A DNA stretch of 49,652 nucleotides. Origin: a virus (taxonomy: Duplodnaviria > Caudoviricetes). The notes beneath the pieces are model-generated. The model worked only from the letters and a program-made list of their open reading frames with translations. It was not told the origin of the DNA and made no database searches. This document shows, piece by piece, positions 1,231 to 27,119 of this stretch; the first letter of the stretch is position 1, and each line of letters starts with the position of its first letter. The position numbers and the translations under genes were made by a program. Location: positions 1 to 49,652 of IMG/VR virus record IMGVR_UViG_3300027956_000478. One strand, written 5' to 3'.

Positions 1231-2358
1231 TTAAAACCCAAATAGATCATCAAGTTCAGTTTGTACATTATCTGTTGGCTTTCTAATACGCCAACCTACA
1301 GAGTTATAGAAGCGTTCAATCGAATTAAATAGAATCTTTTCAAACATTAAGACATAGTCGATTTTAAAAAGATTCTTAAACTCTGCATTATAGTTATACT
1401 TAAAGCCAATATTTGTAATACCATACTTGTTTTGTTTTTCTACGTAGAGATATCTAATTTTATCTCCGGAAGAAATAGTCTCACTCTTACCGTCAATTTT
1501 TGACATAATCAAATTATGATAATATGCTGACTTAACATGAATAGGCATACCTTTAGCAACTAAAAACTCTCTACACAACGGTGCATATTTCTCATACCCC
1601 TTAATACCCATAACGAAAGCAATCTCCTCTGGCATAAGACTCTTAAACACATCAAACGTTTCATTAAGAAGCTTATTAGTCTGATTTTGAGACTGAGTTA
1701 ACAGCATTGTTTCGATAATCTTTTTAGCGTAAGGTTTAATAGCATTAGGCATTGTTGTACGTACAACTTCAACACCTACATACTTGAACTTATCTACTTT
1801 AAGCCCTTCGTCGTCAAGAATATGCATAACGTAACGTTTCTTCTGAAGAAACACAGCAACATCTGCAATACATTCACGCTTAAACACAAATCGACTATCT
1901 TTTGTAAGTAGGTTTTTCTTTGCCCATGTGGTAATACCTGCATTTAGATAATCTTCAAGATCATTTACAGTTTTATAAAAATCTGCAGATACTTCATTAC
2001 CATCTTTCAAAGGTACTTTATCTTTAATACAACCTAAGGAGAAGTAACACGAGTCTGTATCAGAATACACCCAACTTTCATTAAGGGTATGCTTATCAGT
2101 AATATTAAAATTTGTAGTTAAGTAATCTTGTAGTAGCTTACCTGCATGCTTAATAACAGCTTGACCAGTTAGTGTTACAGACGATGCAATATCATCATCG
2201 CCAATAGGAGCTTGTTTATTACCCATATATCCGTAGACAGAATTTAAAAGTACTTTTTGTACCATCTGTAATGTATGGTATCTACTTACATCTAGCTCTA
2301 GTCGTTCTTTCTCTTTTAAGAGCTCGTCTCTTCTTTTTAGTAGTGCCTGTTTATCCAT
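1231..2358 (-). CDS. gp43: Family B DNA polymerase, C-terminal subunit (gp43B: second finger helix, palm, thumb)
   Basis: Motif B KVLLNSVYGYMGN, motif C YSDTDS, KKRY, KYVGVEVVRTT, C-terminal clamp-binding-like LDDLFGF. Confidence 0.95.
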   Translation of the reverse strand: MDKQALLKRRDELLKEKERLELDVSRYHTLQMVQKVLLNSVYGYMGNKQAPIGDDDIASSVTLTGQAVIKHAGKLLQDYLTTNFNITDKHTLNESWVYSDTDSCYFSLGCIKDKVPLKDGNEVSADFYKTVNDLEDYLNAGITTWAKKNLLTKDSRFVFKRECIADVAVFLQKKRYVMHILDDEGLKVDKFKYVGVEVVRTTMPNAIKPYAKKIIETMLLTQSQNQTNKLLNETFDVFKSLMPEEIAFVMGIKGYEKYAPLCREFLVAKGMPIHVKSAYYHNLIMSKIDGKSETISSGDKIRYLYVEKQNKYGITNIGFKYNYNAEFKNLFKIDYVLMFEKILFNSIERFYNSVGWRIRKPTDNVQTELDDLFGF

Positions 2359-2388
2359 ATAAATGCCTGTTTAACCATAAATAAATAT

Positions 2389-3246
2389 ATGAGCAATAAT
2401 GAAAAATATTATGTTTATGCTTATTTTGATCCTATGATCGAATATTATTGTACCTTATGTGAGCAAGAATTCAACGTCAAACCTGTATATATAGGTAAGG
2501 GTAGAGGAAAAAGATATCTTAAGCATCTACATAATAATAAAAAAACTAAACTTACAAATCTCAATAAATTTTTAATAACAAATAATATTGTTCCATGTTA
2601 TAGTATTTTAGAGTACTTTAATAACGAGGCAGATGCTTTTAAGAGGGAGATTGAATTAATAGCTACGGTAGGTAGAGAGAATATAGATACAGGCCCTCTA
2701 TACAATTTAACAAACGGTGGTGAAGGTTCAGCTGGTATAGTACTTACTAATGAACAGAAGGAAAATAGGAGTAAATCAATGTTAATTTTTTGGAATAGCT
2801 TAGATAAAATGAAAAGAGAAAAAATTGGACAAAAATCTCTTGCTAATAGACATCCTGATAATGTGGCAAGAGGGATAAAGAGTACTTTAGATACAAAACA
2901 CAAGTGGTCTACTTATTATAAGCAGCAAGTAGAAAACGAAAGATATAATAGCTGGAAGCAGAGTTATTGTAATACAGATATCAAGAGACAACAAAGATCG
3001 TTAAAATGTAAGATTGCCAGCAGTAAAAGAGAGATGTATTTTATTACCTTTATATTAGTAAGTACAGGCGAGGCTAGAACATCTTTTTTAAAAGATATGA
3101 TAAATGAAGGGTACGGTAAAGATGCATTAGAATGGAGAATAAAAGGTAAAACAGATATAGCTTTACCTTATAAGGTAAAACATCTAAATGATTATATTAT
3201 AATCCAAAAAGTTGAAAAGAAGATCTATTCTAAGCACTCAAGTTGA
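2389..3246 (+). CDS. GIY-YIG-type homing endonuclease between the two gp43 halves
   Basis: YYVYAY...YIGKGRGKRY...AFKREIELI...LYNLTNGGEG; TAAATA late promoter at 2378-2383; overlaps the gp43A 3' end by 22 nt. Confidence 0.85.
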   Translation: MSNNEKYYVYAYFDPMIEYYCTLCEQEFNVKPVYIGKGRGKRYLKHLHNNKKTKLTNLNKFLITNNIVPCYSILEYFNNEADAFKREIELIATVGRENIDTGPLYNLTNGGEGSAGIVLTNEQKENRSKSMLIFWNSLDKMKREKIGQKSLANRHPDNVARGIKSTLDTKHKWSTYYKQQVENERYNSWKQSYCNTDIKRQQRSLKCKIASSKREMYFITFILVSTGEARTSFLKDMINEGYGKDALEWRIKGKTDIALPYKVKHLNDYIIIQKVEKKIYSKHSS

Positions 3247-5966
3247 GTTTCTATTTCCTTTAATTCATCCTTAACTTTTGATAAATCTACCCTTGCAGAC
3301 ATTAGCTTGCTTTTTGTATCTTTTCTCTGATCGTAGTAGTGATCAAGAAATTCAGGAATAATACCTTGCTTCTTCTGCGTAAATAAGAAACCTGCCTTAG
3401 TAATAGCTAATTCTTCTTGTTTAATAAAAGCGCTAAACTTTTCTTTCGTTAAGTTAAATGATCTACCTGATACATGCTTTACAGTATAGTTATCATCATC
3501 TACTTTTTCTATCTTACCTACTTTCGTTTCGGGTGATAGATTAAGCGCAATCATAACGTTCGGATATAGCGAGTTAGCATCAAACGATACTACATTCTCC
3601 TTAAAGCCGTGCTTAGGTTCAGCTACATAGGCACCTGGATTCTTTCCTTCAGCTTGGTTACGAACGAAAGTAGATATAACCTCTTTACGTTTACGTGCTT
3701 TAATCGTAAGAGCTCCGTTGATGACTGAAATAGTACCCATCGCACCTTCAAGCGTTGTCAAACCTACATAAGAAAGCATTCGTAATAGCGATACATATTG
3801 TAACTTCTCCTCAAGTCTAACAAGGAGGTTAACGTCTTGAATGTTATATTTTACAAATGTATTCCAATCAGTCTCAGAAAGTGTAGCTAGGTTAATATCA
3901 CCATAATCAACCTTACGTTCATTAAGTTCAATCTCACCAATAGCGTCAAGCTTGTAAGATTCACGCAGCTTTAAGCAAAACCTCTTATAGATATCGAGAT
4001 AGTCAATACATGCAACGCCATTAATATAGTAACGCTTAACCTCACGACCGAACTTACCCCTAATCATTCTATCATATACTTGACCTACAGGAGACAACCT
4101 ATTTACATACTCTTGACCTAATAATCTTTCAATACGGTTAATGATATAAGGAATATCAAACCCCTCACAATTGTGTGTATGTATACCGTTACATAAGAAT
4201 GTATGTGTTTCTGTTGTTATATCGTACATTTGCACCTCTCTACCTGTCTTGGTAATAGGTAATATCCTAACTACATATTCATCAGCACCACCATACATCC
4301 ATTGTATTTTATTAGACGCAGTATTTTTAATAGTTCGATATTTTAAATTGCTTAGTTTGGTTTTTCTATGTGTATGTCTGATATATAAATTTTCTAAAAA
4401 TTTCTGATTTATATTATTACTATTTACAGTAATATAATTCTTATGCAAACGCGATTGAACACCATTCCATAGTAGTAATTCTTGAAGGTCATTTAAAAAT
4501 TTATATTTAGTGCAGTCGTAATTACATAAAGAAATACCATTCTGCTCAATCCAGCCATCACCGTCGATCATACCACTAAAAAATGCCTTGAATTGAGAAT
4601 AAGATAATCTAGATAGTAGTTCTACATCTGGTTGCTTAGAGTCACTTTTGTTATAAATTAAATTGTGCAATACACGAACTTTATTATTATTACATATCTG
4701 CTTGGTATATGAAATAAACTCTCTATTATTAAACCTGGTTATACACTCAGTAAATGGTTTTAGATTTTTGTTATGCTCTTTTGCAAACGCTGCTGTATAA
4801 CTTGCGATTAAATCGCTATATTTACTTGTCAACCTATAACACTGCTTACTCTTATCATATGTACCATCTGTAAATATAAATCCCATTAGTTGTAGTATCT
4901 CTAAAGATATACTCTCTTTTTTTCTTATAATAAAATTATCACAAACACGTCGCGTTGTAGTAAAGTTAAAAATATAACTATCCTGATCCTCATCAACTAT
5001 GACGTCTCTAAGTGCTGGCACGCTTTCTACAAATTCTTGATAGTTTAAGTCACTATTATTATTAGTACCTAGATGTTTGACAGCATAGAAATCATAAACA
5101 ACTTGATCACGCTCAATATCTGCTACACTTAATTCTACAATATTTTTAGTTAAGGTTTTAAAATTTTTATAATCTGTCTTTTTTCTTCTATAAACCATAA
5201 ATCTATGATCTTTAGAGCACAGAACACTACTACCATGCTCCGTCTTAATCTCGTACTCAGACTTTATACCTGTATTCATAAAGTTATTTATACAAATACC
5301 ATGTCTTTTAAGAGGCTTATTCTCGAAGTTATTCGATAAATCCTTAATTTTAACTATACGATCCTGTAACCATACATGTTGATTTTCTTCTATACAGTTC
5401 CAACCACTAAGAATATCAGGGTAGTCGGATTCTATATACTCGATAAATTTAATAAACAGAGCCCGCTCATTTTTGCAGTGATAGTATACTACATTATCAG
5501 CAGTATTTGTATATGGAGCTAACCCAAAAGTATTAAACTTCTTAGTAGTTGTATCATAGCATGTAATAACATTTACAGGGTGAGTAGGGTCTTCTGTATT
5601 CGGAAAGCTGCTAGGTGAAAAAGTTTCGATGTCAAAAAATACAACCTTTAGTGGGTGTTGAGTAAATTCAGGAGCTTCATTCTCACGCCAGAACGCTTCT
5701 AGCAAGTATTGCTGTACAGTAGGAATATTTTCGAATAACCTACGGTTACCAGAATCAGCAATATACTTATTTCTATCGTACTGCGTATTAAATGTACGCT
5801 TCTTAACCTTTGTACCGTAAATGGACGTCTTATCGCCGTCAGGAGATTCGAGATACAGGTACGGGTTGAAAGTTACATCGCGTGTAATACGCTTACCGGA
5901 CTCATCCCAAGTAAAAAGCTTGATCGATTGATCTCTGCTATTGTATATTGCGTTTCGATATGCCAT
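3225..5966 (-). CDS. gp43: Family B DNA polymerase, N-terminal subunit (gp43A: exonuclease, motif A, first finger helix), intein-containing
   Basis: ExoI FFDIET, ExoII GWN[intein]CEGFDIPY, ExoIII YNIQDV, motif A SFDANSLYP. Confidence 0.95.
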   Translation of the reverse strand: MAYRNAIYNSRDQSIKLFTWDESGKRITRDVTFNPYLYLESPDGDKTSIYGTKVKKRTFNTQYDRNKYIADSGNRRLFENIPTVQQYLLEAFWRENEAPEFTQHPLKVVFFDIETFSPSSFPNTEDPTHPVNVITCYDTTTKKFNTFGLAPYTNTADNVVYYHCKNERALFIKFIEYIESDYPDILSGWNCIEENQHVWLQDRIVKIKDLSNNFENKPLKRHGICINNFMNTGIKSEYEIKTEHGSSVLCSKDHRFMVYRRKKTDYKNFKTLTKNIVELSVADIERDQVVYDFYAVKHLGTNNNSDLNYQEFVESVPALRDVIVDEDQDSYIFNFTTTRRVCDNFIIRKKESISLEILQLMGFIFTDGTYDKSKQCYRLTSKYSDLIASYTAAFAKEHNKNLKPFTECITRFNNREFISYTKQICNNNKVRVLHNLIYNKSDSKQPDVELLSRLSYSQFKAFFSGMIDGDGWIEQNGISLCNYDCTKYKFLNDLQELLLWNGVQSRLHKNYITVNSNNINQKFLENLYIRHTHRKTKLSNLKYRTIKNTASNKIQWMYGGADEYVVRILPITKTGREVQMYDITTETHTFLCNGIHTHNCEGFDIPYIINRIERLLGQEYVNRLSPVGQVYDRMIRGKFGREVKRYYINGVACIDYLDIYKRFCLKLRESYKLDAIGEIELNERKVDYGDINLATLSETDWNTFVKYNIQDVNLLVRLEEKLQYVSLLRMLSYVGLTTLEGAMGTISVINGALTIKARKRKEVISTFVRNQAEGKNPGAYVAEPKHGFKENVVSFDANSLYPNVMIALNLSPETKVGKIEKVDDDNYTVKHVSGRSFNLTKEKFSAFIKQEELAITKAGFLFTQKKQGIIPEFLDHYYDQRKDTKSKLMSARVDLSKVKDELKEIETQLECLE
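4170..5396 (-). mobile_element. Intein with LAGLIDADG endonuclease (409 aa) in the ExoII motif of gp43A
   Basis: Starts CIEENQHV after GWN and ends THTFLCNGIHTHN before Cys+1; block B CSKDHRF; LAGLIDADG-like LMGFIFTDG and FFSGMIDGDG. Confidence 0.93.
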
Positions 5967-19438: not shown

Positions 19439-19520
19439 AACTTAGTATATGTAAGTTCCTTTACTTAAGTTTAAGTTATCATATTTTGGTTAAACAAGAA
19501 ATTATGACTAAATAATATAT

Positions 19521-20147
19521 ATGCACTATTATGTCTATAACTGGGTAAATCCTAAAACAACAGAGGTTTTTTATGTTGGTAAGGGTAAATATGCTAAATG
19601 CTATGATAGAGCTTATAATAAACATCACGCGGGCAGATGTCAAAAAAAGAGAGAAAAACTACATTCTGAAGGTTATTCTGATGTGGATATAGTTCACATC
19701 ATAAAGGAGTTTAATACAGAACTTGAAGCTCTATCTTATGAAACAGAGCAAATCAATACATACGGTATTATAGAAGAGGGTGGAACGCTATTTAATTTCC
19801 GTAAAAATGGCACCGAGGCTGGCAGCTATCAAAAATATAGAGATAGGGATATTAAGGATATTATTAAAGCGTATGAATCAGGTATGACTATGTTAAAAAT
19901 AGGTGAGATGTATAATGTACATGAAACCACAATTCGAAAATATCTTAAAGAAAGTAACGCCATAATAAGACGGCAAGGAAAAGACTTAAAGAACCCACCT
20001 CCAAACTTTAACGATGCTTACGAAAAAGTATTGAGAGGTGAGCTTAGGAGGTGTGATCTTAAAAAGGAGCTTAATACTAATACGTATCAGAATATTTTAA
20101 GATGGATTAAAATATATGAGAGCTCTATCTCGGCTCTGCCATCTTAA
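19521..20147 (+). CDS. GIY-YIG-type homing endonuclease with a C-terminal HTH
   Basis: YYVYNW...FYVGKG...ALSYETEQI...LFN; [24 protein letters not shown]; TAAATA at 19509-19514; overlaps the folE 3' end by 23 nt. Confidence 0.8.
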
Positions 20148-21689: not shown

Positions 21690-22334
21690 ATGAAATCAAA
21701 TGCTGTTTTTCAGTCAACAAAAGTAATCGAGCTCGGTTCATGCGCATTTAGACAATGGCGAGCATCACATTCACACTGCAGATTCCTTCATGGATATCAG
21801 CTCAAAGCTAAACTATGGTTTAGCGGTTCATCGCTCGATGATAAGAACTGGGTAGTTGATTTTGGAGGTTTAAAAGAACTTAAAGCTAAACTAAATAGTA
21901 TATATGATCATACAACTACTGTTGCTGCAGATGATCCTGAACTAGAGACGTTCAAGCAGTTACATGATAAGGGTATTATTCAACTATATATTCTAAAAGA
22001 TGGTGCGGGGATTGAACGTGCAGCTGAAGTTGTCTTTAATATTGCACAAGAACACATTAACTCTATTACTAACGGTCGATGCTGGGTAGACAAAGTTGAG
22101 GTTTTCGAACATGAAGATAATTCTGCGACTTTCGGTAGTAATGAACTCAAGTATAATACCACGACAGGTCTTAATTTTAATCAAAATCCTCTCCTACAAG
22201 TACAGGAAACTACTACAACTACTACAACTAATCAACAAGATCCAACACCACCATCACGCGCGGCAAATGTTGGACCAGGTCCTATTTCAAACAATATGGG
22301 TAATCCGTTCGCAGGTACTTCGTGGGGTGCTTAA
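21690..22334 (+). CDS. queD: 6-carboxytetrahydropterin synthase with a low-complexity C-terminal tail
   Basis: CAFRQWRA.SHCRFLHGY, WVVDFGGLK, YDHT, VEVFEHEDNSA. Confidence 0.9.
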   Translation: MKSNAVFQSTKVIELGSCAFRQWRASHSHCRFLHGYQLKAKLWFSGSSLDDKNWVVDFGGLKELKAKLNSIYDHTTTVAADDPELETFKQLHDKGIIQLYILKDGAGIERAAEVVFNIAQEHINSITNGRCWVDKVEVFEHEDNSATFGSNELKYNTTTGLNFNQNPLLQVQETTTTTTTNQQDPTPPSRAANVGPGPISNNMGNPFAGTSWGA

Positions 22335-22585
22335 TGACGCTTGGCGTCTAGTACCTTAACAATAAACTTAAGGATCTTACTTCTAACGATTTCAGATTCT
22401 CTAAATTCGAATGCGTGGATTTTTTGATCCACGCATTCGCCTGTATCAAAGCGTTCGTATATTTCTTGAAAACCTGATAACTTACCGATATCACTTTGAT
22501 TTAAATCGCCACAAATAACATATTTTGTATTCTTACCAAAACGTGTTAATATTGTAACAAGCTCAGGTTTAGATAAATTCTGCGC
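22331..22585 (-). pseudogene. phoH: Displaced second copy of the phoH 3' end (84 intact codons plus stop, no start codon)
   Basis: Manual translation AQNLSKPELVTILTRFGKNTKYVICGDLNQSDIGKLSGFQEIYERFDTGECVDQKIHAFEFRESEIVRSKILKFIVKVLDAKRH*; about 52/84 identical by hand to the C-terminus of ORF 23609-24352. Confidence 0.92.
22408..22439. repeat. Perfect 13-bp inverted repeat (possible bidirectional terminator)
   Basis: CGAATGCGTGGAT-TTTTTG-ATCCACGCATTCG. Confidence 0.85.
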
Positions 22586-23857
22586 GTTTAGTATAAATAA
22601 TTTATATGAATAAATTTATACAAATTTTAAAAAATAACGCTGACAATAACAAATATACGAAGCGGTATATTGCTCTTATTGATTATTATTACCATAATAA
22701 AGTTAATTCAGTATATACAGAAAAGCATCATATACTACCCAAGTCATTTAGTGATATTAGTATTACAGATATAAACAATAGCGATAATATTGTTATATTA
22801 GACGCTCGTGCTCACTTTATAGCACATCTATTACTTACTAAAATGTTCACAACAAATAAATTAATGAATAAAAAAATGAATTTTGCTTTTTTTCAAATGA
22901 AATTAACAAATAAATTTCAAGATCGTAGGTATATAAACTCTAGATTTTATTCTAAAGTAAAAAAACAAATTGCAGAATATACAAGACTTTATAAAGGAGA
23001 GTGTGTTAGATATATTGACAAGAATGATATTTTATACAATAAAAAATATAAAGATTATATAACAGATGGATATTCATTAGAAATGACACCTGAATTTAAA
23101 GTAGGTCGTGTGGGTAATATGAAAGGAAAAAAACATTCATCAAAAACAAAAGAGCGAATGAGTATTGCTGCAAAGCGTATAATTCATTATGGGTTGCTAA
23201 ATATGACATTAGAGCAGAAAAAAGCAGCTATAAATAGAGGGCAGGAAACTAAAAAGCAGAAACTATCTGTGGATCCACATATATATGATGAAAGTCGTGC
23301 ACGTGCAAGAGAAAAAACCAAAGAACTATACAGATCTGGAGTTTTATCTAACAAAGGAGAAAATAATAGTCGCTTCGGTAAACCTGTCTCAGAAAAACAA
23401 AGGCAAAAAACATCTGAAATTAAACAGAGACGTTCTAATAGTGGCTATACACATAAAGAGACATATTTTATGTATGTTAAGCCAGCATTAGATCAAGGAC
23501 TAACACTTACGGAAATTGCTATAAAGCATCCCTACTATACAGGTAGTAAAGCTAATAAAGCATACCATTTACGTCAAGTTATTAAAAAAAATATACAGCA
23601 GTATAAAGTCATTGATTGCATTTAAGTTTTCTAGCTATAAACTTAAGAATTTTACTTCTAACGATTTCAGATTCTCCAAATTCAAAGCAGTGAATGTTAT
23701 TCATAACACTTTCCTCGTCGTTGAACGAGTTATAAACATTAACAAACCCGGAATTTTTAATATTACTCTGATTTTTATCGCCGCAAATAACATACTTAGT
23801 GTTTTTACCAAAGCGTGTAAGGATTACTTTTAATTCGTCTAAATCGTTATTTTGAGC
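22586..23857. mobile_element. Homing cassette: late promoter, HNH endonuclease and replacement phoH 3' end
   Basis: Deleting 22586-23857 in silico fuses phoH ...IVDE in frame to the displaced AQNLSK... end. Confidence 0.8.
22606..23625 (+). CDS. HNH homing endonuclease (Mob-like) with NUMOD3-type repeats
   Basis: TEKHHILPKS...NIVILDARAHFIAHLLL; GKKHSSKTKERMS; TATAAATA at 22592-22599; overlaps the phoH 3' end by 17 nt. Confidence 0.88.
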   Translation: MNKFIQILKNNADNNKYTKRYIALIDYYYHNKVNSVYTEKHHILPKSFSDISITDINNSDNIVILDARAHFIAHLLLTKMFTTNKLMNKKMNFAFFQMKLTNKFQDRRYINSRFYSKVKKQIAEYTRLYKGECVRYIDKNDILYNKKYKDYITDGYSLEMTPEFKVGRVGNMKGKKHSSKTKERMSIAAKRIIHYGLLNMTLEQKKAAINRGQETKKQKLSVDPHIYDESRARAREKTKELYRSGVLSNKGENNSRFGKPVSEKQRQKTSEIKQRRSNSGYTHKETYFMYVKPALDQGLTLTEIAIKHPYYTGSKANKAYHLRQVIKKNIQQYKVIDCI

Positions 23858-24352
23858 TTCATCTACGATAACTAGTGCATCATTAAAGGTTAAACCTCTA
23901 ACAAAGTTAACCGGTATAGCTTGAATAATATTGTTTGCTTTGAGAGAATTACATGTACCTGTACCTGTAATTTCTGTTATTTTTTCTATAAGAGGCATAG
24001 CGTACGGTGAGAACTTGTCATCTATCTCTCCCGGTAGAGCCCCAATGCTACGTGATGCCGACTCAATAACTGATCTAATGTATATAATGCCTGTTATCTT
24101 CTTCTCCTTAAGCAGCTCGAGGCCTGCTAACACAGCAATATAAGACTTTGCAGAACCTGCAGGTCCGGCTACGAAAGCCATATTCGTGTCATCATCTTTT
24201 ATACAATTATAAAACTGTTGATGATTAGTGTTGAAGTGGAAGGGTTTCTTGATTTTAAAATCAAGCATCCAGTTTTTTTGAAAAGAAGCTTCTATTTCGG
24301 AAACTTCCTCCAAACCAGCAGTTTTGCGCTTACGCGCCACTTTACGGGTCAT
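23609..24352 (-). CDS. phoH: PhoH-like ATPase
   Basis: GPAGSAKS, IGALPGEIDDKFSPY, FVRGLTF, IVDEAQN, ILTRFG, CGD..QS, IVRS. Confidence 0.93.
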   Translation of the reverse strand: MTRKVARKRKTAGLEEVSEIEASFQKNWMLDFKIKKPFHFNTNHQQFYNCIKDDDTNMAFVAGPAGSAKSYIAVLAGLELLKEKKITGIIYIRSVIESASRSIGALPGEIDDKFSPYAMPLIEKITEITGTGTCNSLKANNIIQAIPVNFVRGLTFNDALVIVDEAQNNDLDELKVILTRFGKNTKYVICGDKNQSNIKNSGFVNVYNSFNDEESVMNNIHCFEFGESEIVRSKILKFIARKLKCNQ

Positions 24353-24367
24353 ACTTAAATTATTTAA

Positions 24368-24682
24368 TCAAAAGTAATTATTTTACAGTCTACTTATAGT
24401 ATAATTAAACCTCACTTCCAACAAGCAGAGCTTGAATATGAGGTTATTACTGATAATAATAAAACGATTTGGTTAGATATAGCGATTCCAGATTTAAAAA
24501 TTAATATTGAATATGATGGTATATATTGGCATACTAAAAATAAAACTACAATATCACTATCAGATGAAAACCGGGATGAATTTCTACGTAATAAAGGGTG
24601 GAGAGTATTCAGAATTAGATCTATGAGAAATTTAACAGAAGAAGAGTTGAAAACAGAATTTAATAAGCTACAATTAATTTAA
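24368..24682 (+). pseudogene. Vsr/DUF559-like endonuclease domain with no ATG at its 5' end (not in the ORF track)
   Basis: Open frame ...IIKPHFQQAELEYEV...WLDIAIPDLKINIEYDGIYWH...DENRDEFLRNKGWRVFRI...; bounded by TAA at 24365-24367 and 24680-24682. Confidence 0.75.
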
Positions 24683-25860: not shown

Positions 25861-26520
25861 ATGCCTTACCTTAACCATAATATACCTACGATAACTTGCT
25901 TAATTCGTAACGAGTACTTGTTTAATCATGAATCAGGATTTGATGAATATACACCTTGTGATGTTCATACAGTAACATCTATAGAGAAGAGAGTTCCATT
26001 ATTTGAAGGTTTTTTGACTAATGGAGTCAATTGGACTCGTAGACCTATTACAGCGTTTTGCTGGAAGCCATGTAAACCTGTACCGTTGGAGCACGCAATG
26101 TATTGGGACTGCTTTAGTCCATATATTGACGTTCAAGTTCGCACGAGAATGAAAGGTCTCAGAGCCTTACTGATTACACCGCTAAATACCAAAGAAGCGG
26201 GTGAATATATGTTCACGTTAGATTGGGGATGGGAAAATAAAAGTATTTTGGATACAAATTTCTCCGAAACACCAGAGCATAAATGTGCTCATATGTTCAA
26301 AATGGATAATGGAAACTTCTATGCTTACCCTAACAATCGAATTATATGGCATGATAATGCATGGGTAGACAAACCTATTGATAGAAATCCTGGTTACAAA
26401 ATTGATTTAACCACATATAGTGTGGAAAATAAAAAATCTATATTTACAGACTATAGTTATATGACCGAGTTTACTTCTGACCCCCAGCAAACAGATACAG
26501 AAAAAACTTATTATAAATGA
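25861..26520 (+). CDS. Hypothetical phage protein
   Basis: 219 aa ORF; WDCFS, YMFTLDW, EHKCAH, GNFYAYPNNRIIW. Confidence 0.75.
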   Translation: MPYLNHNIPTITCLIRNEYLFNHESGFDEYTPCDVHTVTSIEKRVPLFEGFLTNGVNWTRRPITAFCWKPCKPVPLEHAMYWDCFSPYIDVQVRTRMKGLRALLITPLNTKEAGEYMFTLDWGWENKSILDTNFSETPEHKCAHMFKMDNGNFYAYPNNRIIWHDNAWVDKPIDRNPGYKIDLTTYSVENKKSIFTDYSYMTEFTSDPQQTDTEKTYYK

Positions 26521-27119
26521 AGTCTTATAAAGTACTTGTACTAAATAAATTTTATTTTCCTTTAGCTGTGGAGGATGTTGAGAGAACATTCGGTAATATA
26601 TTCTCAGGGTCCGTTATACCTCTTGATATTAGTTATGAGATGACTGATGAAAATACAGTTAATCTAGAGAATATCGAGTATTTTATGCCTATATCTAACG
26701 TTAAGGAATGGTTAGAACTACCTATAAGACCCTTTGATGAATATATTCAAACAGCTAGAGGACCTATTCGTATACCTTCTGTTGTTATATGCTCACGGTT
26801 TGATAAAGTTATATATAACAAAATTCAATTCCCTACCAAACAAAACATACTTAAACGGGATAACTATACCTGTGTATATACAGGTGTAAAGTTAGCCAAA
26901 GAGAATCTTAGTGTAGATCATATTATACCTAAGAGTAGAGGTGGTAGAGATACATGGGAGAATATGGTATGTTGCGATAGGCTTCTTAATTCTAAAAAAG
27001 CATCTTTTACACTAGATCAAGTTGGCTTAAAACTGAGGTATAAACCGTATAAGCCAAAGAATGGAATGGCGTTAGATCTTTATAAAGATGAATGGGCTTC
27101 TTTCTTGAAAAATCTATAA
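26517..27119 (+). CDS. HNH (McrA-like) endonuclease
   Basis: VLVLN..Y.P, NILKRDNYTCVYTG, SVDHIIPKSRGGRDTWENMVCC...N..K. Confidence 0.85.
   Translation: MKSYKVLVLNKFYFPLAVEDVERTFGNIFSGSVIPLDISYEMTDENTVNLENIEYFMPISNVKEWLELPIRPFDEYIQTARGPIRIPSVVICSRFDKVIYNKIQFPTKQNILKRDNYTCVYTGVKLAKENLSVDHIIPKSRGGRDTWENMVCCDRLLNSKKASFTLDQVGLKLRYKPYKPKNGMALDLYKDEWASFLKNL

Follow-up and report, generated by a model that had tools for sequence, protein, structure and literature searches.

The window analysed here, a stretch of 49,652 nucleotides from a virus of the Caudoviricetes, carries the genes of a T4-like phage, and at one of its loci (table 1) phoH holds an insert at DE|AQN, which the present analysis confirms. 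All the parts described in the first-pass annotation are present: phoH itself, an HNH reading frame antisense to it, and a second phoH C-terminus, stop-free and start-less. This stranded segment begins, as had been noted, at AQN of the DEAQN motif, matches positions 128-204 of the Pfam PhoH model (2.4e-12), and agrees with the end in use in 52 of 84 aligned columns (62%; 65.8% identity over the tblastn segment). The insert measures 1272 nt, a multiple of three, so that its removal yields an in-frame phoH, again as claimed. Only about 20 nt of it are non-coding, and the replacement phoH end overlaps the HNH stop by 17 nt. The shared TTAA of the stranded and queD stops is likewise there, and is common to 12 of the 13 HNH-free relatives examined. 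The exchanged tract may extend further 5' in phoH than the edge of the insert: over codons 136-150 identity to relatives drops to 0.76, against 0.86 among the relatives themselves.

Table 1. The interrupted phoH locus and its parts, in window coordinates
Feature	Position	Strand	Remarks
phoH ORF	23609-24352	-	Pfam PhoH 4.6e-48
Native phoH 5' part, codons 1-165	23858-24352	-	Walker A GPAGSAKS; Walker B ending ...VDE
Insert without counterpart in HNH-free relatives	22586-23857		Replacement end, HNH gene and promoter-like motif
Replacement phoH 3' end in use	23609-23857	-	82 codons + stop
Free-standing HNH endonuclease gene, antisense to phoH	22606-23625	+	339 aa
T4-type late-promoter-like motif TATAAATA	22592-22599	+	6 nt before the HNH ATG
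Predicted HNH recognition site/operator	22535-22585	-	First 51 nt of the stranded end
Stranded native phoH 3' end	22331-22585	-	84 codons + stop; stop-free, no start codon
queD-like gene (PTPS family)	21690-22334	+	Pfam PTPS; stop overlaps the stranded stop (TTAA)
25-nt block, identical to 23652-23676	22377-22401	-	Conserved block, no dedicated repeat

An arrangement of this kind might be an assembly chimera, or a chance local duplication with no tie to the nuclease, and the 25-nt block common to both ends is a place where short-read graphs can break. We give this explanation hardly any credence. The same cassette occurs in a different phage genome (L001/L081), with 4 differences in 2022 nt, where queE is inverted and the folE insert is absent, and it is also found in contigs from four runs of four other studies. 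The junction 23857/23858 is bridged in all four of these runs and the junction 22585/22586 in three of the four, among the pieces listed; this check covered 4 of 20 listed runs, excluded the possible source run, and yielded no single piece covering the whole stretch. Furthermore, another locus (L191) has the same AQN junction and a full stranded end next to an HNH protein 45% identical to that of the window, and the link to phoH extends over the whole nuclease family (see below). The end in use of L191 differs from the window's and is 58% identical to L191's own stranded copy. In one run (X4) an HNH-free allele co-occurs with the element, with a loose end at 22555. Of the other candidates from a flank screen, L210, L225, L258 and L138 were inspected (L122 and L246 were left out) and discarded as paralogue pairs or low-complexity matches. 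The 161 HNH loci give at least 4 further cases of a gene end duplicated across a free-standing nuclease gene.

The first-pass annotation had also suggested that the 25-nt identity could permit excision or chimeric ends. The block loses its special standing, given that, of the 12 closest HNH-free relatives listed, 7 have the same 25 nt. Excision through it is rejected, both on this ground and because a joint of 23858 to 22585 was absent among the pieces listed from the 4 runs.

The comparison with relatives identifies the stranded end as the native one, as had been proposed. It is closer than the end in use to all 21 closest phoH relatives (76-88% versus 56-70% amino acid identity); with L001 set aside, these 21 closest loci all lack the HNH gene. 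The phoH 5' part is 84-93% identical to the 21 HNH-free relatives, and groups with L002/L005 at 99/98. Separate trees of the three segments agree, with branches of 0.076 for the 5' part, 0.13 for the stranded end and 0.74 (DNA tree) for the end in use, a long branch. L169, whose match has a stop codon, was left out of alignment A3. Moreover, 18 of 70 residues of the end in use differ at positions invariant among 12 close relatives. Judged from its sequence, the end in use is thus foreign or fast-evolved; the mobile unit stands as the first-pass annotation had drawn it, while its description of the phoH 3' half as "recoded" was an understatement. Tree tests reject neither a placement of this end inside the host clade nor one outside it (p-AU 0.21-0.45). 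Among the 36 loci that a protein scan of viral contigs gave, L001 alone exceeds 70%, and no donor or HNH-free carrier of the NDLD-type end, that in use here, was found. A DNA pattern for this end returned two records, the contig of L001 and a chance hit within a neck-protein gene. That neither search gave an HNH-free carrier is as had been expected.

Could the stranded end still be used, with the insert removed or bypassed at the RNA or translation level, by an intron or a ribosome hop? An insert divisible by three in front of a stop-free end would be compatible with this. Yet Rfam intron families gave no match at E up to 1 between 19000 and 25000 (two sub-threshold matches are unrelated), and the insert itself brings a complete in-frame end with a stop. 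The stranded end is also drifting: it departs from its relatives at 7 of 70 invariant residues, the 5' part at 3 of 136 (Fisher p 0.033), and it has G62R at a near-invariant column. Other family members retain only some 17 codons of it, one of them with a stop. A bypass is accordingly very improbable. As for transcription, the TATAAATA-type motif, assigned on the T4-type late-promoter consensus, shows no enrichment over the window (11 occurrences, with 17.3 expected), and TAAATA also precedes the ATG in L191, L272 and L277. No RNA library is among the 20 listed runs with the sequence, which has no bearing on expression. Scans for sigma-70 promoters (12 versus 11.9 expected) and terminators (0 versus 1.1 expected) remained at chance.

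Whether the hybrid gene yields a working PhoH is a separate matter. The frame is fused exactly and open in the window. That the insertion keeps the gene functional is nevertheless uncertain, because the Asp of GDxxQxD, present in 56 of 56 distinct HNH-free ends, is replaced by Asn in the window's end in use, which also has a one-residue deletion, and because L001 has a nonsense codon in this end, one of its only 4 differences. The same changes would fit the disruption of a dispensable gene, with the end in use a hitch-hiking donor fragment and PhoH no longer fully working. We consider this quite unlikely, since the end in use retains 28 of the 31 most conserved columns (L4, T11 and D32 are lost) and shows, relative to 12 relatives, a dN/dS of 0.18 (dS 1.55, dN 0.28), while the L191 end in use keeps the Asp.

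The HNH protein is composed of an HNH domain, a family-specific middle module (about residues 120-175), NUMOD3 repeats, for which there is a Pfam match, and a C-terminal helix-turn-helix-like part; it matches PHROG 655, "homing endonuclease" (4.3e-31). Residues E39, H41, H42, N61, H70 and H74 are intact, and among 62 family members all are invariant except N61, which is near-invariant. The Pfam HNH model is matched by 48 of the 62, the window's own protein failing at E 0.01. Searched against solved structures, the family profile finds the HNH domains of McrA, a maturase, Cas8 and IscB (best E 0.0014), while a 26-protein profile has no solved relative below E 0.1. The predicted model of the nuclease domain (pLDDT 92) has strands at 38-42 and 62-66 and a helix at 67-80. 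Fold searches with the whole protein and with the nuclease domain gave no significant match: for the latter the top Foldseek rows are Cas8-HNH at E 2.5 or worse, and the best VIA score (Z 4.2) belongs to unrelated helical rows. Helix-turn-helix chains are weak matches to residues 282-339 (best Z 5.4, rmsd 2.2, 53 aligned). Among 50,697 deposited phage records there are 41 weak matches; the 25 of these that are listed have E values of 4e-10 or worse and none covers 80%. In genome contigs, none of 133 pattern matches was confirmed as a family member.

In the loci examined, this HNH family is bound to phoH. All 12 distinct members adjoin the gene, although the counts overstate independence, the L325 contig being 92% identical to L111's and nine L272-type records being identical. 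The middle module is present in 16 of 171 HNH loci, which are exactly the 16 that hold phoH (seven distinct elements), and the five members found afterwards all lie beside phoH as well. Of 19 pattern loci, eight did not match the queries and were excluded. An HNH-domain profile found no family member in L002-L109 or L297-L304 other than the second record of L001; by the nuclease domain alone, the first seven members form two starred groups rather than one. A full stranded end is kept in only 2 of the 12 members, and in the case of L272 the HNH-free relatives give no sign of end replacement.

What the members have in common, a point absent from the first-pass annotation, is a look-alike of the first 51 or so nucleotides of the stranded end, antisense and 10-22 nt before the HNH ATG, in 12 of 12. 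In 11 of them this site copy scores above all 135 control HNH genes; the exception, L313 (-8.5), falls below the best control (-7.2), and scores are modest in the co-directional members. The first seven copies all outrank the 135 control upstream regions, and were reached by 0-7 of 1000 shuffles. In the five prospective members the copy is found in the same register each time (0, 0, 0, 1 and 19 of 1000 shuffles). A second training set for these scores still held the closest clade's duplicates, L083-L093, and was not relied on. The corresponding site in the end in use scores between -22.6 and 30.2 in all seven elements scored, below the training range of 38.3-63.4, with L110 having a higher score for the site in use (2.3) than for its upstream copy (-4.3). 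The site accounts for 2 of the 3 near-invariant columns that are changed in the window's end in use, and for 2 of 4 in L191. The copy persists in members that have lost the rest of the stranded end, some of them with a remnant of only about 17 codons. The 17-codon copy of L272 resembles the window's clade, while all seven HNH-free relatives of L272 carry the in-use type there; it differs from its relatives' phoH type, and thus the site copy appears to travel with the nuclease.

On this basis, the start of the stranded end is likely to be the target of the HNH enzyme, a right-hand recombination arm and an operator similar to that of I-TevI. We judge it probable that this is a homing HNH enzyme which cuts or nicks the Walker-B codons of phoH and brings a substitute end of 82 codons, the stranded stretch of some 50 bases being its likely binding site. 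A simpler view accepts the end replacement and takes the short copies as decaying leftovers, or as recombination arms only, with no role as operator. The window and L191 do still hold the whole end, in a drifting state, the L277 copy has a stop codon, several co-directional copies score low, and the geometry of insertion would by itself place the copy beside the promoter. Against mere decay, the register and the 10-22 nt distance are constant in proteins only 30-45% identical to the window's, and 8 of 51 positions are invariant among the first seven copies; each of these is the first or second base of a codon and is conserved in 62 HNH-free sites as well. Furthermore, the copies of seven co-directional members are inverted with respect to phoH, an orientation in which they could not act as arms in place. 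We therefore regard the leftover or arm-only explanation as unlikely.

Returning to a target that doubles as operator, a complete cycle can be envisaged. In a mixed infection the enzyme would bind the DNA that codes for xQNLxxxELxTILTRF in an HNH-free phoH, and a break would follow near DE|AQN. The left broken end would recombine with the donor phoH 5' part and the right one with the site copy ahead of the HNH gene; the recipient would thereby acquire the donor end, the HNH gene and the promoter, while its own end becomes stranded. Since both arms lie within phoH sequence, shared downstream genes would not be needed. Immunity of the end in use is likely, given its changes at conserved positions of the site, and the stranded copy is likely spared because the upstream half is missing. 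Bound to that copy, the enzyme would shield the late promoter next to it and so repress its own gene in the manner of I-TevI, and over time the stranded end would decay to the site alone. That a single 50-base piece serves as stranded target half, operator and right-hand recombination arm in a homing cycle free of splicing is put forward tentatively, as a scheme somewhat short of probable. If true, phoH alone would suffice for the element's moves between distant phage lineages, each invasion would rebuild a stranded gene end, the repeated divergence of the phage phoH Walker-B region would be driven by the element, and the enzyme's target could be read from the DNA ahead of its own gene.

The family thus offers a series from fresh insertion, with a full stranded end, to an old state with the 50-base copy only, in either orientation. 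The target of the HNH family is predicted to within about 50 bases, and cleavage, immunity and autorepression become testable; this also suggests that the targets of free-standing endonucleases may perhaps be readable from promoter regions in general. Phage phoH is widely used as a diversity marker, and caution is in order, as the gene can combine two histories that meet at the Walker-B motif.

Among known systems, a group I or II intron differs in that no ribozyme core was found here in the Rfam scan and only the 20 or so non-coding nucleotides are available. Aeh1 mobE, which reportedly splits nrdA into two peptides, is similar in that an endonuclease gene interrupts a host gene and no self-splicing element is involved; there both halves are translated, whereas here one end is replaced and the other lacks a start codon. 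The available text of PMC10448857 describes an endonuclease gene that splits its host gene into two peptides. As in the Mob family of T4-like phages (MobA and MobE, intronless homing), an N-terminal HNH domain is combined with a separate DNA-binding part (PMC2988022 and PMC2790892, as far as their available text goes), and the gene lies next to a conserved target gene, with a resident allele that is different at the site; MobE itself nicks a conserved coding block (available text of PMC2790892). The lack of a self-splicing intron or intein and the patchy occurrence among close relatives are shared with free-standing HNH enzymes. According to the available text of the same two papers, the cuts of known free-standing enzymes lie hundreds to thousands of bases away from the gene that encodes them; in contrast to the Mob type, the insertion point here coincides with the predicted site, as in intron-encoded enzymes, and the end of the host gene is duplicated. 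For I-TevI, encoded in the td intron of phage T4, the available text of PMC2988022 describes a copy of the homing site without the cleavage part, located at the late promoter and acting as operator. The likeness lies in a predicted homing-site-like sequence at the endonuclease's late-promoter-like motif in 12 of 12 members, the difference in that such autorepression is described for intron-encoded enzymes, while the putative operator is here the stranded half of the invaded gene itself.

The literature gave no paper on gene-end replacement in phages, in line with the first-pass annotation, nor on a phoH-targeting endonuclease; few subscription papers were covered, and a published phage case may exist. 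Neither is present in the available text of PMC10448857, PMC2988022, PMC12724721 or PMC13565253. The closest described case is, as had been suggested, fungal and mitochondrial: the mORF gene hybrids of Allomyces macrogynus atp6 and of Glomus atp6, atp9, cox2 and nad3 (available text of PMC3630166), to which C-terminal duplications of atp6 and cob beside homing endonuclease genes can be added (PMC6279837 and PMC7487136, likewise from their available text). As these sources portray the mORFs, there too the endonuclease gene arrives with a divergent C-terminal segment in frame and without splicing, and the native end lies downstream, closer to the ends of relatives than the copy in use. For the fungal mORFs, the available text of the three papers does not describe a site kept as an operator. 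The present element differs, moreover, in its phage genome, in an HNH rather than LAGLIDADG or GIY-YIG enzyme, in targeting an auxiliary gene, and, in the window, in a nuclease gene that is antisense with its own promoter-like motif instead of co-transcribed. The locus extends to phages a way of invading genes that is known from fungal mitochondria, with the alleles before and after invasion in hand.

The locus proved to be organised as the first-pass annotation had described, with phoH followed by an antisense ORF and by a second, stop-free and start-less C-terminus that begins with the AQN of DEAQN, according to ORF coordinates, Pfam matches and alignment (see table). The window derives from a T4-like phage with portal, tail sheath stabiliser, family B-type polymerase and helicase genes (PHROGs). 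The insert carries a replacement phoH 3' end (the end in use), the HNH gene and a motif that resembles the late-promoter consensus TATAAATA and is not enriched in the window. A gap of 20 nt separates the start of the HNH ORF from the stranded phoH end, which is identical to the end in use in 52/84 aligned columns. An assembly artefact was ruled out by a separate phage genome (L001/L081; queE inverted, folE insert absent), in which only 4/2022 positions of the cassette stretch differ, and by contigs from four studies (4 of 20 listed runs, a possible source run being left out). Among the pieces shown, junction 23857/23858 is bridged in 4/4 runs and 22585/22586 in 3/4, while no single piece covers the whole stretch and none of those listed joins 23858 to 22585. 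In run X4, an HNH-free allele contig (SQNLSLSEL type, to judge by its loose end) coexists with the element-bearing form.

Features of the phoH cassette, of other mobile-gene traces and of related loci
Feature	Location	Strand	Remarks
phoH	24352-23609	-	Pfam PhoH 4.6e-48
End in use	23609-23857	-
Insert	22586-23857		1272 nt
HNH ORF	22606-23625	+	339 aa; antisense to phoH; end shares 17 nt with phoH stop
Stranded phoH end	22585-22331	-	Pfam PhoH positions 128-204, 2.4e-12; no ATG
Native-end codons 51-70	22334-22440	-
folE insert	19469-20137
GIY-YIG/HTH gene	19521-20147	+	antisense, in last folE codons
Nuclease-like remnant	~24380-24680	+	between phoH and queE; start-less 3' part
DNA polymerase region	1231-5966
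Polymerase ORF, first part	3225-5966	-	intein-like insert, terminus HN-C
GIY-YIG-like ORF	2389-3246	+	antisense
Polymerase ORF, second part	1231-2358	-
Separate HNH protein	26517-27119	+	Pfam HNH, HNH_4, HNH_5
Nuclease-like ORF after phoH	L300:2840-3713
Nuclease-like ORF after phoH	L304:1779-2651
Endolysin stranded copy	L176:3352-3447	-	29 aa matched
Head-tail adaptor stranded copy	L255:3304-3417	-	38 aa matched
Topoisomerase II subunit stranded copy	L182:351-449	-	17 aa matched

Sequence comparison indicates that the stranded copy is the native phoH end, as had been proposed. From 95 phoH relatives found, 80 loci were kept, and the 21 closest ones, L001 aside, were compared (84-93% identity in the 5' part; all devoid of the HNH gene): 21/21 match the stranded copy (76-88%) better than the end in use (56-70%). 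The queD gene directly follows phoH in 19/21, and the TTAA overlap of the phoH and queD stops, expected of a native end, is common to 12/13 relatives examined. In DNA trees (23 and 26 rows, picked from 115) the window phoH 5' part clusters with relatives L002 and L005 (99/98, branch 0.076), and the branch of the stranded end measures 0.13 versus 0.74 for the end in use; the latter reaches 0.88 in a 65-row protein tree. Compared with 12 close relatives, the stranded end shows dS/dN of 0.83/0.083 (relatives among themselves 0.76/0.051), and residues invariant in these relatives are changed at 7/70 positions versus 3/136 in the 5' part (Fisher p 0.033, the relatives not being independent). The stranded end, stop-free so far, thus appears to be in early drift. 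Codons 51-70 of the native end are 95-98% identical in DNA among the 12 relatives, including at synonymous sites, a level that the remainder of the gene does not approach.

The end in use (dS 1.55, dN 0.28, ratio 0.18 against the 12 relatives) may be either of foreign origin or a product of fast local change: no donor emerged from a protein scan of viral contigs or a DNA pattern search, and one-clade tree tests rejected no placement (p-AU 0.45, 0.21, 0.32). The suggestion that the gene remains functional is uncertain. Of the 31 columns that are the same in 95% or more of 56 distinct HNH-free ends, 28 are retained, but the Asp of GDxxQxD, present in 56/56 of these ends, is N, one residue is missing in the alignment, and one of the four L001 differences is a nonsense codon that would remove the last 19 residues, which could reflect either an error or true decay. 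The 25-nt identity between the two ends, suggested earlier as a possible route to recombination, needs no special explanation, since the same block is unchanged in 7/12 closest HNH-free relatives.

Family evidence identifies the antisense ORF as an HNH protein. It matches PHROG 655 (4.3e-31) and Pfam NUMOD3, and a profile of 62 family members matches the HNH domains of McrA, a maturase, Cas8-HNH and IscB (best E 0.0014). Pfam HNH is matched by 48/62 members, the window's own protein not among them; its residues E39, H41, H42, N61, H70 and H74 are intact. Structure searches with the whole protein and the nuclease domain gave no significant match, and an Rfam search no intron around the cassette.

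Judging from gene context, this HNH family is tied to phoH. Its middle module, modelled on 26 homologues, occurs in 16/171 HNH-bearing loci, exactly the 16 holding phoH, although the flanks of some loci are short and 19 had been retrieved by pattern from the same module. The 16 represent seven distinct elements (window/L001, L191, the L272 type with nine identical records, L277, L110, L111, L192); a later module scan gave 18 loci, and 5/5 new ones adjoin phoH. Among 12 distinct members, five are antisense to and convergent with phoH and seven lie co-directionally downstream. L191, whose HNH is 45% identical to that of the window, has the same design: a full stranded end that starts at the same AQN, and a different end in use, the two ends being 58% identical. 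In two HNH-free L272 relatives (L300, L304) an unrelated nuclease-like ORF follows phoH, which suggests a hot spot for genes of this kind at the phoH end.

A putative copy of the predicted HNH target, the first ~51 nt of the stranded end (22535-22585), precedes every HNH gene of the 12 members. In L272 and L277, ~17 codons of phoH-like stretch from xQN were seen by eye directly behind the promoter-like motif (VQNFSKNELITILSRF; SQNVKLFELLT*VTRFG), and with a protein profile each comes first of 11,948 positions, ahead of the site in use. A nucleotide matrix trained on 62 distinct HNH-free sites was applied in antisense, 5-34 nt before the automatically chosen ATG, to 142 distinct HNH genes. The seven phoH-linked genes, not scored blind, took ranks 1 to 7 (52.9 to -4.3; reached by 0 to 7 of 1000 resamples), the 135 controls averaging -25.0 (best -7.2). 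Five later members, scored blind, gave 19.1, 13.3, 10.0, 4.7 and -8.5, at 10-14 nt before the ATG in unchanged register (reached by 0, 0, 0, 1 and 19 of 1000 resamples); L313 is the weak one, and the L325 contig is 92% identical to that of L111. The site in use scores below the training range in 7/7 elements scored and below the upstream copy in 6/7. The seven co-directional members have the copy in the opposite orientation to phoH, so that it moves with the nuclease gene. That of L272 resembles the window's clade; 7/7 HNH-free L272 relatives carry the site type of its own phoH, so end replacement cannot be demonstrated there.

Further observations concern other genes of the window. The folE insert, missing from L081, changes the folE C-terminus (...KMAEPR versus ...KMASVK in L081); beyond it stand the final 8 nt of the former end, a miniature of the cassette design. 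The remnant upstream of phoH, putatively Vsr/DUF559-like, matches the tail of a complete ORF in L013 at 97.7% identity, has related ORFs in L003/L004, and is absent from most relatives. The polymerase is split in two by an antisense ORF, and the stretch with the separate HNH gene is conserved in L002, L005 and L007, unlike that of the mobile HNH gene. In L001/L081 queE is only 73.5% identical, phoH, cassette and queD 98-100%; queE types among close relatives (L002-L020) of 74%, 87% and 93-96% point to frequent exchange on the 5' side of phoH.

In the simplest reading, the HNH protein would bind DNA coding xQNLxxxELxTILTRF and break it near DE/AQN. Donor repair, in which upstream phoH would serve as the left arm and the site copy as the right, would yield exactly the window's structure, and would explain the constant xQN junction and the presence of the element beside differing downstream genes (queD in the window, a kinase-like one in both L272 and L277). 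The stranded end may have given rise to the operator first, or the operator may regenerate stranded ends. The cassette is real and its anatomy and history are well supported; enzyme target, operator and arm roles are predictions.

In fungal mitochondria, endonuclease ORFs with a replacement C-terminus create gene hybrids (PMC3630166, PMC6279837, PMC7487136). No phage case appeared in the literature covered (including PMC10448857, PMC12724721, PMC13565253). Our own screen found short stranded C-terminal copies beside antisense HNH genes of other subfamilies (L176, L255, L182). What the analysis adds is a phoH-bound HNH family whose predicted target doubles as likely operator and recombination arm. 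Known free-standing phage enzymes cut far from their own gene (PMC2988022). With the I-TevI operator, described there, the window shares its geometry, a site without the upstream half beside a late promoter, and an operator role is predicted by analogy; MobE nicks DNA next to a conserved block of coding sequence (PMC2790892), as the window HNH is predicted to do.
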